A stretch of 64,000 nucleotides of DNA from Pseudomonadales bacterium (GTDB lineage Bacteria > Pseudomonadota > Gammaproteobacteria > Pseudomonadales > Azotimanducaceae), in NCBI GenBank assembly GCA_965116345.1, contig OZ220680.1, positions 3,976,330 through 4,040,329 on the forward strand. Reading direction: 5' to 3'. Positions 18,711 to 25,406 of the stretch are shown here, one piece after another; positions within the stretch are counted from its first letter, which is position 1, and each line of letters begins with the position of its first letter. Position numbers and translations under genes: made by a program. A model generated the notes under the pieces. The model ran no database searches. It was not told the origin of the DNA and saw nothing but the letters and a program-made list of their open reading frames with translations.

Positions 18711-19507
18711 GCCGAATCCGCCCCCGAGGACTCGCGCTGGCCGGCGATTCTCGCCTGCATCCGGCGCATGCCGTTCAACCACCGCTCCAGGTCGCTGGTC
18801 TTGCGCGCCATCCACGTCTCGGCGATGGAATCGGTGAGAATCAGGAAGCGCTCCGCGTAGACCGCATCGGAGACCATGCGGGCGACTTCTTCCGGCTCCT
18901 TGACCGGCCCCGCGGCGGTGCTGGCGAATGCCGACGAGCCATCGCCCAGCATGGGTGTTCGCACCCCCAGTGGCGCGAGCAGGGACACCCGGATGCCGTT
19001 GTCGTGGTAGGTGATCGACAGCCATTCGGCGAGCCCGACCACCGCGTGCTTGGTGACCGCGTAGGTCAGGTTGCCGTGACTCGTGAGGATGCCCGCGATG
19101 GACGCCGTGTGCAGCAGGTAGCCGGACTCGCGTTCGAGCATCGAAGGCAGCACCGCGCGCACCGCGTACACGTGGGCCATGACGTTGACCTGCCATTGCT
19201 CGTTCCAGACGTCGATTTCGGTATCGAGGGGTGTTCCGCCGGTGGCGATGCCGGCGTTGGAGAAGAACACGTCCACCGGGCCGTTCGTGCGTTCGGCCTC
19301 GGCCACCAGGGCGTTGACGTCCGCCTCGTTCGCCACATCGCAAACCACCGCGTGTCCGTCGATCTCCCGGGCCACGCGGCGGGCGTCGTCGCCGTTGACG
19401 TCGGCAACCACGACGCGGGCACCCAACCGGGCGAACTCGCGCGCTGATGCCGCGCCGATGCCGCTGGCGCCGCCGGTGATGATGGCGTGCTTGTCCGCCA
19501 GGTCCAT
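18707..19507 (-). CDS. Short-chain dehydrogenase/reductase (SDR)
   Basis: TGGASGIG cofactor motif and YAVTKHAV (YxxxK). ATG 19507 preceded by AAGGAGGG. The stop TAG lies in the MITE terminal CTAG. Confidence 0.9.
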   Translation of the reverse strand: MDLADKHAIITGGASGIGAASAREFARLGARVVVADVNGDDARRVAREIDGHAVVCDVANEADVNALVAEAERTNGPVDVFFSNAGIATGGTPLDTEIDVWNEQWQVNVMAHVYAVRAVLPSMLERESGYLLHTASIAGILTSHGNLTYAVTKHAVVGLAEWLSITYHDNGIRVSLLAPLGVRTPMLGDGSSAFASTAAGPVKEPEEVARMVSDAVYAERFLILTDSIAETWMARKTSDLERWLNGMRRMQARIAGQRESSGADSA

Positions 19508-19627: not shown

Positions 19628-21769
19628 GTGAAGTCAAGAGTTGCCGCGGCGGTCACGCGGTTGTGGGGAGTCCACGTGCTGTTGTTGGCGACGTCGGTCG
19701 CGTTCGGCTGGCAGTCCGTGGGTGAAGAATCGTCGGTGGAATACGAGGCACCCGAGGCACGTCCTCCCGGCTGGGTGGACGAGGCCCGGCTCGCCGCCGC
19801 AGGCGACGCCGAACCCGGTAGCTGGCTGGCCCATGGGCAGACCTACGAGGAACAGCGCTTCTCGACGCTCACCCAGATCAACCGGGACACGGTGGCCAGG
19901 CTCGGTCTGGCATGGGTTAAGAACCTGGACGTTCCCTTCCGGATGCAGGCGACGCCGCTGGTCATCGACGGCGTGATGTACTTCACCGACCCGTGGAGCG
20001 TGGCCTATGCCGTGGATGCCCGAACGGGCGAGGAGATCTGGCGCTTCGATCCCGAGACCGATCGCGCCTTCATTCGGTACTCGTGCTGCGGCGGTCCGTC
20101 CAACCGCGGTGTCGCGGCGTACAAGGGCCGCATCTACTTCGCGACCTTCGACGCCCGCCTGGTGGCCCTCGACCAGGCGACGGGCGAGAAGGTCTGGGAC
20201 GTCGACACGACCCACTACCCGACCCACACGCCCTACACGATCACCGGCGCGCCCCGGGCCGTGCACGGCAAGGTGATGATCGGCCAGAGCAGTTCCGAGT
20301 TCGGCGTGCGCGGGCATCTGTCGGCCTACGACGCCGACACCGGGGAACTGGCTTGGCGTTTCTTCGTCGTACCGGGTGATCCGTCGCAGCCTTTCGAGCA
20401 TCCCGAACTGGAGGAGGCCGCCAAGACCTGGTCCGGGGAGTGGTGGAAGCTGGGCGGCGGCGGCACCCCGTGGCACGCCATCGTCTACGACGCCAAGTTC
20501 GATCAGCTGATCTTCGGCACCGGCAACGGTGCGCCGTGGCCGCGCAAGATCCGTTCGCCTGGCGGCGGCGACAACCTGTTCCTCGGTGGCGTCCTGTCGG
20601 TGAACCCGAACACCGGGCGCATGAACTGGTTCTACCAGATGACGCCGGGAGACAACTGGGACTTCAATGCCGCCCAGGACATCGCCCTGATGGATCTGGA
20701 AGTGGACGGCGAGATGCGTTCGGTATTGGTGCAGGCGCCGAAAAACGGCTTCTTCTACATGCTCGACCGGGAAGACGGCGAACTCCTCACGGCGGAGCCC
20801 TACATGGACCAGAACTGGGCCACGCACATCGACATGGAGACCGGCCGGCCCGTGGAGCACCCCGACCAGTATGACGAGGAACCGCGCTGGGTCATGCCGG
20901 GTAACTCCGGCGCACATAGTTGGCAGGCGATGGCCGTGGATCCGAATCGCGGCGTAGCCTACGTCCCGGTGCAGGAGATGGCGGCCTTCTACAGGCTGCC
21001 GAAGGCGTTCCTCGAGACCGGCGAGTACGAACTCGACCCCAACAGGATGAGCCTGGGCGTGGAATTCGGACCCCCGGCGGGTGGACCGGAGAAGCCGGAG
21101 GACAAGGGCTACCTGAAGGCGGTCGACGCACGTACGGGGGCGATCCTCTGGAGCGTGCAGCGGAAGACGCCCTACAACGGCGGCACGCTGGCGACAGCCG
21201 GTGGACTCGTCTTCCAGGGCGACGCCACCGGCACGCTGGCGGCCTACGATGCCGACGACGGCTCGACCCTGTGGGAGTACGACACCCAGGGCAGCACGCC
21301 GGCATCGCCGATCAGCTACGAACTCGATGGCGAGCAGTACCTCGCGGTGCTGGTGAGCGGCCAGTGGCAACGCGAGGAGAGCGACGGACGGCTGATGGTG
21401 TTCAAAGTGGGCGCGGAAGGGGACATCACCAAATCCCTCGGCGAAGTCCAGATTCCACAACCGCCGCCGCTCGCGGCGAGCGAGGAGGAAGTGCGCCAGG
21501 GCGAACTGCTCTACAACCGGGTCTGCGTCGGCTGCCACGGGATCGGTGCGGTGGCGACCATGAACGCCGACCTGCGGATGATGACCGCCGAGACCCACGA
21601 GCGCTTCCAGGAGATCGTCCGCGGGGGTGTACTGAGCGACAAGGGCATGCTGTCCTTCGCCGCGGCGGTCACCGCGGAGGAAACGGAACTCATCCGCCAG
21701 TACGTGATTTCGCAGGCCATAAGGGCCGGCGAGGAAGAAGAACCACCGATGCCCCCATCCCGCCGTTAG
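19628..21769 (+). CDS. PQQ-dependent alcohol dehydrogenase, quinohemoprotein type (C-terminal cytochrome c domain)
   Basis: Vicinal-disulfide SCCGG, repeated W-motif propeller, GGGGTPW, C-terminal CVGCHG heme site, signal peptide; GTG 19628 after GGAGGTGGAG. Confidence 0.9.
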   Translation: MKSRVAAAVTRLWGVHVLLLATSVAFGWQSVGEESSVEYEAPEARPPGWVDEARLAAAGDAEPGSWLAHGQTYEEQRFSTLTQINRDTVARLGLAWVKNLDVPFRMQATPLVIDGVMYFTDPWSVAYAVDARTGEEIWRFDPETDRAFIRYSCCGGPSNRGVAAYKGRIYFATFDARLVALDQATGEKVWDVDTTHYPTHTPYTITGAPRAVHGKVMIGQSSSEFGVRGHLSAYDADTGELAWRFFVVPGDPSQPFEHPELEEAAKTWSGEWWKLGGGGTPWHAIVYDAKFDQLIFGTGNGAPWPRKIRSPGGGDNLFLGGVLSVNPNTGRMNWFYQMTPGDNWDFNAAQDIALMDLEVDGEMRSVLVQAPKNGFFYMLDREDGELLTAEPYMDQNWATHIDMETGRPVEHPDQYDEEPRWVMPGNSGAHSWQAMAVDPNRGVAYVPVQEMAAFYRLPKAFLETGEYELDPNRMSLGVEFGPPAGGPEKPEDKGYLKAVDARTGAILWSVQRKTPYNGGTLATAGGLVFQGDATGTLAAYDADDGSTLWEYDTQGSTPASPISYELDGEQYLAVLVSGQWQREESDGRLMVFKVGAEGDITKSLGEVQIPQPPPLAASEEEVRQGELLYNRVCVGCHGIGAVATMNADLRMMTAETHERFQEIVRGGVLSDKGMLSFAAAVTAEETELIRQYVISQAIRAGEEEEPPMPPSRR

Positions 21770-22083
21770 CGAGGCCCGTTTGGGCGGCCGCGTTACCGAA
21801 CGATCTCTTGCCGTCGAGACGATCGATCGCAACGGTCGCCCCCATAAGCGCCAACCAGTTCTGGGTGCGCCGAATACGCGACGTACAGCAACCTACCCCA
21901 GGGAACCTACGGGTTCGACTGGCTCGAAGTTCCTTGGCTACTGGACGTTCAGTCCACTTGATTGGGACTTCAAGATGGCTGATGCCGCTGCGTGTCCAGA
22001 TCAGGCACCGGATTGCGCGTTTTCTATGTCCATAGGTCCGATATCGTGGGGCTTGGGTTGCGGGGGATGACGGCGACCAAAAC

Positions 22084-22308
22084 ATGAGGAAGTTCGGCGC
22101 GTTCCTAGTGTCGGTGGTGCTGGTGTTTCCAGCGGCGGTCTTGGCAATCGCTGGAATAGTCGGCCTGCTAGGATCGCTGGCCGACATTACGATGTCGGCG
22201 AGCATGCAGGTCCTGTTGTCAGGGGCTTGTCTGTTCGTGTCCATCGTGGTGGCGAACATGGCGTACTATTGGATCATCCGACGCATGGATGAGACATCGA
22301 ACGAGTGA
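22084..22308 (+). CDS. Small two-TM membrane protein, unknown function
   Basis: 74 aa with two hydrophobic helices and the charged tail RRMDETSNE; lies in the lower-GC islet. Confidence 0.5.
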   Translation: MRKFGAFLVSVVLVFPAAVLAIAGIVGLLGSLADITMSASMQVLLSGACLFVSIVVANMAYYWIIRRMDETSNE

Positions 22309-22528
22309 GGGACGCACAGTCTGTTGACTCCTGATCGCGGCTTGTACGTGTTCAGAACATCGCTTCGCACGCCAGTTGATGCGTTGTAGGACGGAGACGG
22401 GTACGCATGCGTGTTCCGTCGCGCATACTTGTGCGACGTTGGCACCGGAATGTTGGCGAAGCACCATCGCAACGTGGTCAACGGGATTGATGTTTGCGGG
22501 TGCGGGCAAGGTGGCACGGCTTAGAGCC

Positions 22529-22858
22529 ATGCGGCCTGTTCGGGCCGACTGCAGGGTGACGGACAACGGCACCGTCCTTAGTGCAGGTTCGAGCGCTAAT
22601 GTCCTGATCTATTCGAACAAGAACTGCCCGGCGGGAACCTCAGCGCAACTATGCCGCGAGGCTAGGGCCATCGCGAGGGAGATCCAAGCGGTTTACCAAG
22701 AGGTCAAGGAGGCCGTCGGTCCCAACGACCTTGTTAGGGTCGACTTGTACGACAAGCTACATCCAGGGGGCCCGCCGGACCCCGGCACAGGGGGAGTATC
22801 GCCGCCCTGGCCGGATCGACCTGCGGCGGGGCGCGCCCGCAAGTGCGATTCACCATGA
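22529..22858 (+). pseudogene. Possible N-terminal portion of the HEXXH protein, separated from it by a +1 frame change
   Basis: The ORF overlaps the next ORF by 128 nt in an adjacent frame. G5 runs at 22766-22770 and 22790-22794 are candidate slip sites. Coding status is uncertain. Confidence 0.35.
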
Positions 22859-23333
22859 GATGGGACATGCCTTCTTCAACGATCACATCCAGACTACAGG
22901 GCATCTTCAAGAATGGGGCTCGGAGGAGGGGATTGGTATGATCTTCGAGGAAGCGCTCGGGGCTGCGTCGCGACGCGACCCACGCGCGGCAACGGTCGAG
23001 GGCGTCCTACAAGTATGCTCAGTGGATCTTGACTGCGCCTACGAGTTAGGAAGGCTCGTAGCCAAGCGATACCGCGAGGTGAAAGAGATAAGGAACAAGG
23101 ACTACGCGCTCAAGGTGTACCTAGAGGCGGTGAGGAACGTTGAGGTGGCCGTGACTCCAGACTCGCTCGAAGAACGGGTGAACACCGAGATGGAGAGAAT
23201 TGACGGACGAGAAGACCACGCGGAGGACGATTATGTTAATGAGGACGAAGAGGAACGTGCGAATCGGGAGTTCGATAATTCACCCACTGACACCGGCTTC
23301 TTTGACGATTGGGATGAGAATTGGGAAGAATAG
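22731..23333 (+). CDS. HEXXH zinc-metalloprotease-like protein with a strongly acidic Trp-containing C-terminal tail
   Basis: IHHEMGHAFFNDH motif followed by EEGIGMIFEE (possible third ligand); tail DDYVNEDEEE..FFDDWDENWEE. No family recognised. Confidence 0.55.
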   Translation: MLGSTCTTSYIQGARRTPAQGEYRRPGRIDLRRGAPASAIHHEMGHAFFNDHIQTTGHLQEWGSEEGIGMIFEEALGAASRRDPRAATVEGVLQVCSVDLDCAYELGRLVAKRYREVKEIRNKDYALKVYLEAVRNVEVAVTPDSLEERVNTEMERIDGREDHAEDDYVNEDEEERANREFDNSPTDTGFFDDWDENWEE

Positions 23334-23449
23334 CGGGGCTCGCTCAATTTGGACGAATTCTTGGAGTCTCTAAGCAAGCTCGTCGGGCTCCCTCGCGACG
23401 CCGAAAGCCGAGGACCGCACTACGGCCCATGATAAGGGGCGGGAGGAAA

Positions 23450-24358
23450 ATGCAGGCGGTGATGGCGACGTTGCTGGCGGCGGTCCTGTTTGTCGTGCTG
23501 GCGTACTCGCGCAGTGGTGTGGACACGGGACTTCCCGTGGTCGAAACAGAGCGTGAGCCGGTGTCACCGCGACCCCCGCCGGCCACGCGGGTGGACCTGA
23601 CCGAGCCGGCGACCGGCACGGCGAAGGCCGCCGGGAAGGAATACGCGGCGCCGCCGTGCGACGGATGCCTCAACGAGCCCGAGGTACTGGACGTGGCAGA
23701 GACGTTCGTTTACCACATGCGCCATGAAAAACACATCGGCTTACGGGCCGAGCTTTACTCCGACATCGCCGCTAGCCTCGAGGCTGCGGGGCAGCCCGCT
23801 CCGCACGAGACGCGACTTCCTAAGCTTCCGCAGGGGCTGGTGGACGCTCCGCCGGATCGTTCGATGAGCGGCAGGGTGCTCCCCCTCGTGGATAGGCCAG
23901 CAGAGACCTGGGTTATCTGGGTGCAGGAAGGCTGGTTCGACACCCAGTCCTACATCGATGGCGGCATCCTTCCGCCGATCGCAGCCTCATGGCCACCACT
24001 CAAACATGAGAAGTTCATGCTCATAGATGCTCGCAGCGGTGAAGTGTTCGCGGATGACATTTGGCGTAGTAGACATCGTCGCAGTCTGGGTGCCTACGGA
24101 GATATTGCTGCGCAGGCTGCCGGGAAACGCGCCGAGCACTGGATCGCCAAGAGGTCAGTCCCCTGGCCCGCATTTGTCACCACGCCGCTTGTGCGAACAA
24201 CATATGCTTCGAATATCAGTTGCTTGTGTCGGAATCCCGAGGTGTCGGAATTTGCAGACTGCGCTGGCCGCGAGCGCGCGCTCCAAGGAGCGCGTTCGCA
24301 CGGGGCCAAAATCCTCGAACGCGCCCGCAAGGGCGCGCATCATCGCGGCCCGTGGTGA
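23450..24358 (+). CDS. Membrane-anchored protein, unknown function (weak PepSY-like motif)
   Basis: ATG 23450 after GGGAGG; TM ATLLAAVLFVVLAY; Pro-rich linker; FMLIDARSGEVF resembles the PepSY DAxTGEV signature. Confidence 0.55.
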   Translation: MQAVMATLLAAVLFVVLAYSRSGVDTGLPVVETEREPVSPRPPPATRVDLTEPATGTAKAAGKEYAAPPCDGCLNEPEVLDVAETFVYHMRHEKHIGLRAELYSDIAASLEAAGQPAPHETRLPKLPQGLVDAPPDRSMSGRVLPLVDRPAETWVIWVQEGWFDTQSYIDGGILPPIAASWPPLKHEKFMLIDARSGEVFADDIWRSRHRRSLGAYGDIAAQAAGKRAEHWIAKRSVPWPAFVTTPLVRTTYASNISCLCRNPEVSEFADCAGRERALQGARSHGAKILERARKGAHHRGPW

Positions 24359-24368
24359 GAAATTCGGG

Positions 24369-24525
24369 CTAGGTATCCTCTGATCAAGCCCGTCCATGGG
24401 CTTGATCAGGAGAAAAACAAAAGCGCGGTTTTGTTTTTCTGACAAATTCAGTGGCTTGCGCCACCGAATTTGGCGGCACGTCCTTGTGCCGCGCTAGGGA
24501 AGGTCTTAAATCAGACCTTCCCTAG
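24369..24525 (+). mobile_element. MITE-like element, copy B (157 bp)
   Basis: Identical to 18555-18710 except for one extra A in the terminal hairpin loop; flanked by CTAG on both sides. Confidence 0.85.
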
Positions 24526-25406
24526 CCCGCGAGCGCCCAGGCCATGCCGACGACGGTGATGGTCGTCCAGGCGAAGAAGCGCTGTGCCCTTGGACCCGCG
24601 AGGTGCAGCCTCGTCTTGGCCACCTGGAGGCCGATCAGGAAGCCGGCGATCAAGCCGGTGAGGTGGGCGACGACGTCGGTGTCCTGGCCAGCGGTTCCGG
24701 TGTAGGCGAAGAACGCGAACGCGGCGAACACCGGGGCGAAGCGGTGTTGCCAGCGACCGCGGCGGAAGTAGCCGCTTCGCCACATGAACGCACCGACCAG
24801 GCCCACGGCGGCGAAGGTCGCGGTGGATGCGCCGATGGACATGAAGAACTCCGGTCGCACCAGGACGTTGAGGGCGTTGCCCAGCGTGCCGCCGCCGACG
24901 ATGCACAGCCACGCCAGGCCGGATCCCAGGTAGCGGCCGGCCAGCACCCCGAACAACGCGCCGAACAACGAGTTGGCGACGATGTGGGGCACATCGGCGT
25001 GCAGCGTGAGCGCCGTCACCAGCCGCCAGAACTCGCCCGACATCACCGATGCCACGTGGATCCGGCCGATGGTGTTCCAGTCCCAGCCGAAGAGGTCGGC
25101 TCCTTGGGCGAACATCACCCCCCAGATGACGCCGAGGTAGGCAAGCACGCCCGGCCAGCCACTGTCGATCCGCACCGGCAGCACGGGTGGTGGTTGGGGG
25201 ACATTCTCGCCTTCGTACGCGGCGAGCTCGGCGGCGGCGGCATCGACATCCTCCTGCGCCACGAGCAGTCGCCAGGCACCGGCTTCGTGACCGATGCGGC
25301 TGTCGATGCCCCGGGCGGTCAGGACGAGCTCGAACGTGCGCAGATCCCGTCGTTCGCGTCCGGTGCGCAGGACCAGCCAGTCTTCGTCGTCGGACATGGG
25401 AGTCAT
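24522..25406 (-). CDS. Rhomboid family intramembrane serine protease
   Basis: GASTATF (GxSxxxF) and AHLTGLIAG catalytic motifs, 6-7 TMs, cytoplasmic N-terminal domain. Start ATG 25406 (ORF open to 25601). The stop TAG is inside the MITE terminal CTAG. Confidence 0.85.
   Translation of the reverse strand: MTPMSDDEDWLVLRTGRERRDLRTFELVLTARGIDSRIGHEAGAWRLLVAQEDVDAAAAELAAYEGENVPQPPPVLPVRIDSGWPGVLAYLGVIWGVMFAQGADLFGWDWNTIGRIHVASVMSGEFWRLVTALTLHADVPHIVANSLFGALFGVLAGRYLGSGLAWLCIVGGGTLGNALNVLVRPEFFMSIGASTATFAAVGLVGAFMWRSGYFRRGRWQHRFAPVFAAFAFFAYTGTAGQDTDVVAHLTGLIAGFLIGLQVAKTRLHLAGPRAQRFFAWTTITVVGMAWALAG

Follow-up and report, generated by a model that had tools for sequence, protein, structure and literature searches.

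Positions 21770-24521 of the window (the whole 64 000-nt stretch of DNA analyzed, G000:C1:3976330-4040329 in a 4.33-Mb, single-contig genome, G000, of the order Pseudomonadales) form a 2.75-kb islet comprising all of the DNA between two convergent core genes. To its left is a gene for a quinohemoprotein pyrroloquinoline quinone (PQQ) alcohol dehydrogenase (PQQ-ADH) on the plus strand, with its stop codon at 21767-21769, and to its right a rhomboid-family gene on the minus strand, with its stop codon at 24522-24524. From left to right the islet holds unique DNA with a 74-aa open reading frame (ORF), the remnant of a gene for an HEXXH protein, a gene for a membrane-anchored partner protein and two miniature inverted-repeat transposable elements (MITEs). 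The HEXXH and partner genes are probably what is left of a small mobile two-gene cassette.

Rhomboid orthologues are present in 31 of the 32 genomes of the genus, and in at least nine congeners (G021, G042, G043, G002, G012, G007, G010, G019 and G005) the site is empty, only about 10-180 nt separating the PQQ-ADH stop codon from that of the rhomboid gene. The islet is therefore an insertion, and its genes have no housekeeping synteny, as the initial annotation of this DNA, made from the letters alone, had stated. That annotation also gave the islet a lower GC content, correctly in direction, while the dip is about half of the size estimated: positions 21770-24368 have 60.6% GC, against a genome mean of 66.05% with a standard deviation of 2.7% among segments of equal size (z = -2.0, 2.7th percentile), and 50 genome regions are as low or lower. 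GC at third codon positions (GC3) is 0.65-0.76 in the islet ORFs and 0.82-0.85 in the flanking genes. The deviation in base composition is modest. Of the marks of a genomic island, presence or absence at a conserved site and deviant composition were found; a tRNA scan of the islet region was empty, a repeat search found no bounding direct repeats at its edges, and none of its ORFs is integrase-like, the absence of integrase and tRNA having already been noted.

The HEXXH remnant occupies 22598-23333 on the plus strand, as mapped by DNA alignments and three-frame translations against the copies in L025, L026, L017, L022 and G005. Two ORFs, 22376-22858 and 22731-23333, overlap here by 128 nt in different frames. 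Because their counterpart in L017, L019 and L022 is one uninterrupted frame (...VDLYDKLHPGGPPAPAQGEYRGAGRIDLRRGA...IHHEMGHAF...), they are taken as halves of one gene. An extra A at 22779 is unique to the window in a six-sequence DNA alignment, and a switch of codon phase is seen in the frame plot of the window. The window is homologous to the closest copies, on TARA scaffolds L025 and L026 (about 80% nucleotide identity), only from 22598-22601 onward; these two copies and L022 extend upstream into a ribosome-binding site (RBS) and a signal peptide, MKIGSAAALLVLSAGWPSMA|EQK..., of the form MK..LLVLSAGWPSMA|EQ. The window copy lacks the first ~34 codons, signal peptide included, and retains the HEMGH motif (22854-22868, plus strand) with the conserved E-G about 20 residues further on. 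By its sequence the gene is a 5′-truncated, frameshifted pseudogene, so that no exported enzyme would be expected from it, and for the same reason the window copy is not read as a functional module. Two conceptual read-throughs, one assembled from pieces of L022 and one of the window copy, served only as local tblastn queries.

The partner gene core (23450-24165, plus strand, 238 codons) follows an RBS, GGGAGG. Its product has an N-terminal membrane anchor, a Pro-rich linker and a domain of ~190 aa that opens with PC-x-GC, and is 48-83% identical to nine database proteins (P0004-P0012; 230-276 aa), all of which end in ...AEHWIAKxSxP. The core shows in-frame codon periodicity, which is gone after 24166. 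Where the relatives have TAG, TAA or TGA, the window has TGG (24164-24166), and the frame runs on for 64 codons (24164-24358, plus strand) that are encoded by the second MITE, MITE-2. The core thus reads as intact and the stop codon as lost. Since MITE-2 starts with G, its insertion at C-TA-G would have kept the TAG, and the TGG would then be the outcome of a subsequent A>G substitution at 24165. An AlphaFold2 (AF2) model of the partner, with a predicted local distance difference test score (pLDDT) of 66, has a transmembrane (TM) helix at residues 3-24, a disordered linker, and an alpha/beta core of a helix, four strands and a C-terminal helix. A sigma-70-like promoter candidate upstream, at 23302-23331, is not above chance. 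Two assignments were tried and rejected: a twin-arginine translocation signal gave one weak match (E = 0.05) and the arginine pair is not conserved, and a PepSY-type inhibitor fold found no Pfam match in 11 members at E <= 5, no PDB profile match and no Foldseek match at E < 0.4 in PDB or BFVD. As a whole the module in the window is probably defunct; at most, the partner with its MITE-encoded tail and the 74-aa ORF may still be expressed.

HEXXH and partner genes occur together well beyond the window. A profile of the HEXXH family, searched against 1.84 billion proteins, matched 54 cluster representatives, 11 of them at E <= 1e-30; most full-length members have 310-350 aa. The partner adjoins the HEXXH gene in all three distant metagenomic relatives whose contigs were examined, lying downstream of it in L052 (E = 2e-65) and L053 (E = 2e-13) and upstream, with a 4-nt overlap, in L054 (E = 1e-19). 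Within the genus the two adjoin at eight of ten loci, in either order, and at some loci overlapping stop and start codons couple the two genes. Two proteins, P0058 (395 aa) and P0065 (404 aa), are fusions of the HExxH...EG part, a Pro-rich linker and the partner domain (PCxGCL...ETWVVWYQ...LVNARTG); they keep the signal peptide and N-domain of the enzyme and lack its C-terminal helical half. Finally, the same genome carries an intact, diverged paralogous pair on the minus strand at G000:C1:3314819-3316900 (L051/L056), in which an HEXXH protein of 363-365 aa with a signal peptide is followed after a 6-nt gap by a partner of 261 aa, with GC3 of 0.77-0.78. Adjacency, fusions and intact paralogue strongly support a real two-gene module, tightly coupled in evolution. 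The self-contained module proposed in the initial annotation can thus be upheld for this pair as such, though for the window copy, apparently defunct, it cannot. Nor did the proteins turn out to belong to known families that never occur together: no curated family matched, and the pair co-occurs elsewhere. Downstream of the paralogous pair lies an rve-type transposase remnant.

The distribution is patchy. HEXXH matches were found in nine and partner matches in seven of the 32 genus genomes, often in several copies, many of them fragmentary. There was no match to either gene in 400 other genomes of the order or 400 of the class, and no relative of the cassette in plasmids or viral contigs; among the ~830 genomes sampled, the family appears confined to one marine Pseudomonadales genus. 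The contexts elsewhere are hotspots with a DISARM-like set (PLD, MZB/DUF1998, helicase, SNF2), PIN-RHH, AAA_22, DUF5372 and insertion sequence (IS) elements, another context holds an integrase fragment, and the cassette flanks on each TARA scaffold are unrelated. On six metagenome contigs (L017-L021 and L023) the cassette lies within a defence island of DISARM-like type (PLDc_2, MZB/DUF1998, Helicase_C, SNF2) that also carries PIN-RHH, RES-Xre, AAA_22 and a 64-aa DUF5372 ORF, all near dnaJ-dapB.

As to what the HEXXH protein is, the 26 longest members, which were aligned, have in common conserved cysteines, HExGHAF, the Glu-Gly of 'EHWGxDEGxA', and a signal peptide whose A-x-A end precedes a conserved Gln. 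Only E141, E176 and G177 are invariant; H140, H144 and Cys60 are conserved in at least 90%. The invariant Glu-Gly lies ~20-30 residues downstream of HExxH in the family, and E176-G177 ('WGxDEGxA') 20 residues past the second His in the window copy. The HExxH of gluzincin-type zincins (clan MA(E)) is present. In these enzymes a Glu about 18-30 or more residues downstream, on a second helix, serves as third zinc ligand, and the invariant Glu would be that ligand in a gluzincin-like site. The best match to a solved structure is a weak profile match to snapalysin (PDB 1c7k and 4hx3; E = 0.0056) over the beta-sheet and HExxH helix; IrrE-type zincins match over the same region at E of about 0.05. 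Among curated models the best matches fall far below the cut-offs (Reprolysin_4, E = 0.076-0.15; flagellinolysin, E = 0.033). Snapalysin, an M7 enzyme of Streptomyces, is likewise a small secreted zincin. The HEXXH family differs from it in lacking HExxHxxGxxD, in having the invariant downstream Glu-Gly, and in being over twice as long and Cys-rich. A metzincin or M7 assignment (HExxHxxGxxH/D) was rejected: position +7 is Phe or variable and +10 is H, Y, N, Q or I across members, and with no conserved His at +10 the motif fails.

The HEXXH gene appears inactivated in every close copy found, each in a different way. The window copy combines 5′ truncation with the +1 insertion at 22779; L025 has a -1 deletion 43 alignment columns upstream of the window lesion; L026 has at least three frame changes; and L022 has an rve-type IS within the gene and a frame change in the signal-peptide region. 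The copies in L017, L019, L023, L024 and G005 C120 are 5′-truncated beside a DUF5372 remnant, with a CAG>TAG change in addition in G005, and in L027 and L055 the partner is kept and the HEXXH gene absent. The partner is full length at all of the close copies except L055, a contig of 2x coverage, and an intact partner accompanies a damaged HEXXH gene in L025, L026, L022, G005 C120/C252 and the L017 group as well as in the window. Comparisons between copies gave a ratio of nonsynonymous to synonymous divergence (dN/dS) of 0.31-0.50 in the HEXXH parts and 0.31-0.39 in the partner, values that point to moderate purifying selection on both genes over most of their divergence and therefore to recent, independent inactivations.

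Two side observations concern these copies. Six independent lesions fall shortly before the HExxH codons (window 22715-22815 and the matching positions of L025, L026, L022, L017 and L002), within ~100 nt of a ~950-nt gene: the L025 -1 deletion, the L022 IS, the window +1, the G005 stop, an L026 -1 deletion and the truncation point of the L017 group. The cluster, counted post hoc, may mark a hotspot or a recombination junction, or be due to chance. Between window and L025, synonymous divergence (dS) is 0.67 for the HEXXH part and 0.29 for the adjoining partner, a more than twofold difference; the two halves of the cassette may differ in history through recombination.

Two MITEs close the islet on the right, where the initial annotation had recognized one. 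The element it placed at the edge is real: MITE-1 (24369-24524, 156 bp) begins and ends with CTAG, has imperfect inverted ends of 20 nt and hairpins in its interior, and recurs in at least 40 copies in the genome at 79-99% identity. It is abutted by MITE-2 (24166-24369), and its left CTAG is common to both. MITE-2 has 19-nt terminal inverted repeats, GCCCGCATTTGTCACCACG / CGTGGTGAGAAATTCGGGC (family form GCCCGCATTTCTCACCACG), and belongs to a family of 207-404 bp of which the copy here is the short, 207-nt variant; at least 13 copies exist in the genome, such as G000:C1:1644943, 2492983 and 2920401, and others in further genomes of the genus. Seven of eight copies inspected are flanked by cTA...TAg, the insertion being at C-TA-G. 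The rhomboid stop codon falls within the right CTAG of MITE-1 (24521-24524), which fits a preference of the element for CTAG at gene ends. Both are IS5-style MITEs that landed on CTAG sites at gene ends; like the IS5-type MITEs that target CTAG (MITEPsy1/ISPsy2-like), they have terminal inverted repeats, many copies and CTAG or TA at gene ends. MITE-2 is unlike these in being a separate family with other inverted repeats and in that the present copy has become part of an annotated coding sequence.

The left part of the islet has nothing in common with other cassette copies. Directly 3′ of the PQQ-ADH stop, 21770-22083 is unique non-coding DNA: codon periodicity is absent over 21740-22100 in the frame plot, which bears out the earlier remark that the first ~300 nt show no convincing ORF, and the segment has no further copy in the genome and no match in 41 relatives or plasmids. 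An Rfam scan of 21500-24700 found no match. The 74-aa ORF (22084-22308, plus strand) has two hydrophobic segments, at residues ~5-31 and ~41-62, and strong in-frame GC3 periodicity (GC at codon positions 1/2/3, 0.53/0.41/0.76). It is annotated in the public record and alone in its 90% cluster; it has no relative in 32 congeners or the JGI metagenomes, and no family match above noise in Pfam, NCBIfam, PADLOC or PHROGs. This 2-TM ORF is possibly a real gene, and would then be the sole true orphan of the islet, outside the conserved pair. A unique spacer without another genome copy follows (22309-22597), and the part of ORF 22376-22858 inside it has no homology to any HEXXH gene copy. Unique DNA, with the orphan ORF in it, makes up ~830 nt of the islet. 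Of the three or four orphan genes announced initially, then, the 74-aa ORF survives as such, while the HEXXH ORFs come down to one apparent pseudogene and the ORF of 345/302 aa ends in 64 codons of MITE origin.

We read the islet as what remains of a small, decaying mobile cassette of two genes, in whose intact copies the partner is the cognate inhibitor or immunity protein of an exported zincin, and give this reading as a whole a probability of roughly 0.6. The first gene would once have encoded a Sec-exported zincin of ~300-350 aa, and the second a membrane-anchored protein whose PCxGC domain (~190 aa), carried on the Pro-rich linker, probably faces the periplasm. There, in copies that are intact, the membrane-tethered partner would bind the exported zincin and may shield the producer as cognate inhibitor or immunity protein. 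Such a role would account for a partner that persists after the enzyme gene is lost, in the manner of an orphan immunity gene, and we favour it because of this persistence and because the family is patchy, multi-copy, hotspot-associated and fast-evolving. A protease/inhibitor or toxin/immunity pair is our best functional guess; taken by itself, the inhibitor or immunity role of the partner is proposed tentatively, with somewhat less than an even chance of being right. Going further, the pair might be a hitherto undescribed, genus-restricted antagonism module in which a Sec-exported, gluzincin-like enzyme of bacteriolytic or bacteriocin type is neutralised, in the periplasm of the producer, by a membrane-tethered immunity protein that uses PCxGC, the weapon being repeatedly lost and the shield kept, with the window as an orphan-immunity relic; we regard this version as speculative and rather doubtful.

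Several results weigh against our reading. No curated model in Pfam, NCBIfam, PADLOC or PHROGs is significant for the HEXXH protein or the partner. The AF2 model of the HEXXH protein, built on a 6-sequence alignment, has a pLDDT of 36 and is unusable, its order of secondary structure being compatible with a zincin fold. The partner model found no fold match in PDB or BFVD (Foldseek, best E 0.6 and 0.4, TM-scores <0.2), which leaves gene context as the basis for proposing an inhibitor or immunity activity. No delivery domain or secretion genes of type VI (T6SS), contact-dependent inhibition (CDI), Rhs or type VII (T7SS) systems were seen in the contexts examined, only the Sec-type signal peptide. 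Partners decay too: those of G005 C133 and G042 are split and that of the window has no stop, so the retention of partners is a tendency and no rule. For the single-base lesions, the additional A at 22779 and the lost stop (TGG, 24164-24166), the source is the assembly sequence alone.

The last point leaves room for a copy that still works, the frameshift and the TGG being assembly errors or recoding and a 267-aa HEXXH protein starting at ATG 22529. One single-base correction would give back a long frame, the lesions of five copies within ~75 nt could hint at non-random decay, and dN/dS is below 1. Yet the lesions differ in kind (+1, -1, stop codon, IS, truncation) and share no common recoding signal, the repaired window copy would still have unrelated DNA at its 5′ end in place of a signal peptide, and the stretch after TGG is MITE sequence without codon periodicity; we judge a functional copy very unlikely. 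That the islet is ancestral and was deleted from the other species is more improbable still. The missing integrase, tRNA and flanking direct repeats would suit such a history, which is hard to square with the empty site of nine or more congeners (G021, the nearest genome with data, among them), where the flanks share 70-86% identity with the window, with the unrelated contexts of the cassette elsewhere, and with GC and GC3 below those of the flanks. Scarcely credible is a single self-contained trio of protease, partner and 2-TM peptide, the last as holin, toxin or immunity protein. All three ORFs lie side by side on one strand, and the periodicity of the 2-TM ORF is coding-like, but this ORF sits in DNA that has no counterpart at any other cassette copy, has no relative in 32 congeners, the JGI metagenomes or its 90% cluster, and is missing beside the intact paralogous pair of the same genome. 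The co-occurrence of the three proteins, which the initial annotation had proposed to look for, was accordingly not found: the 2-TM ORF, a singleton, accompanies the pair nowhere else.

The main rival of an inhibitor or immunity role is a partner that acts as a dedicated steric chaperone or membrane tether of the secreted enzyme. The partner is built like the lipase-specific foldases (Lif), in which a Pro/Ala-rich linker joins a periplasmic domain to an N-terminal membrane anchor, and its tight coupling by overlapping stop and start codons to the gene of a Sec-exported enzyme, together with the fusion proteins, would also agree with a Lif-like function. A foldase would, however, be useless without its client, and the partner is found intact beside broken enzymes and alone in L027 and L055; furthermore, no Pfam foldase model matches it and the gene order is variable. 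On balance we think a foldase or tether unlikely, and retain the inhibitor or immunity role.

That role has parallels among described systems. Serralysin-type proteases (AprA/AprI, Inh) are metzincins exported by type I secretion (T1SS), and a periplasmic inhibitor encoded alongside protects the producer. The pair described here resembles them in the proposed periplasm-facing inhibitor beside a secreted zinc protease, and differs in its Sec signal peptide, putative gluzincin-like third ligand and TM-tethered partner; no homology was found between the two systems. Effector-immunity pairs with orphan immunity genes, such as T6SS immunity islets, are alike in tight pairing, patchy multi-copy spread, hotspots rich in defence genes and IS elements, elevated dN/dS, and a partner that tends to survive beside dead or missing enzyme genes. 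The present pair departs from them in its ordinary Sec signal peptide and in the absence, in the contexts examined, of T6SS, CDI or Rhs delivery domains and of such an apparatus nearby. Among described systems, the one nearest in logic is the protealysin-emfourin operon of Serratia proteamaculans, in which, as set out in PMC9505478 (citing Chukhontseva et al. 2021), an M4 protease is co-transcribed with a protein inhibitor; protealysin is intracellular, and its operon arrangement is discussed there as toxin/immunity-like. There, too, a zinc metalloprotease gene is followed by a small dedicated partner. In contrast, no relation in sequence or fold was detected and the enzyme here is not M4 (no Pfam match); it has a Sec signal peptide, its partner is membrane-anchored and carries PCxGC, and the gene order can be inverted and fusions exist.

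For annotation, the public record of this locus can be corrected; its entries are a fragment of 131 aa, a protein of 302 aa with transposon sequence as its final 64 residues, and the singleton 74-aa ORF. A small unnamed protein pair is defined, a putative secreted zincin and a membrane-anchored PCxGC partner, neither covered by a curated model. Were the partner an inhibitor or immunity protein, the pair would be a new protease/inhibitor family and a clean natural case of orphan-immunity retention. The intact pair in the same genome makes the function directly testable.

A minor observation concerns the left flank. The PQQ-ADH orthologue beside the rhomboid gene in G005 (L032, G005:C142:843-4712) matches the window in short fragments only, corresponding to 19098-19507, 19758-20007, 20389-20483, 21148-21238 and 21614-21717, which suggests a gene with several internal deletions.

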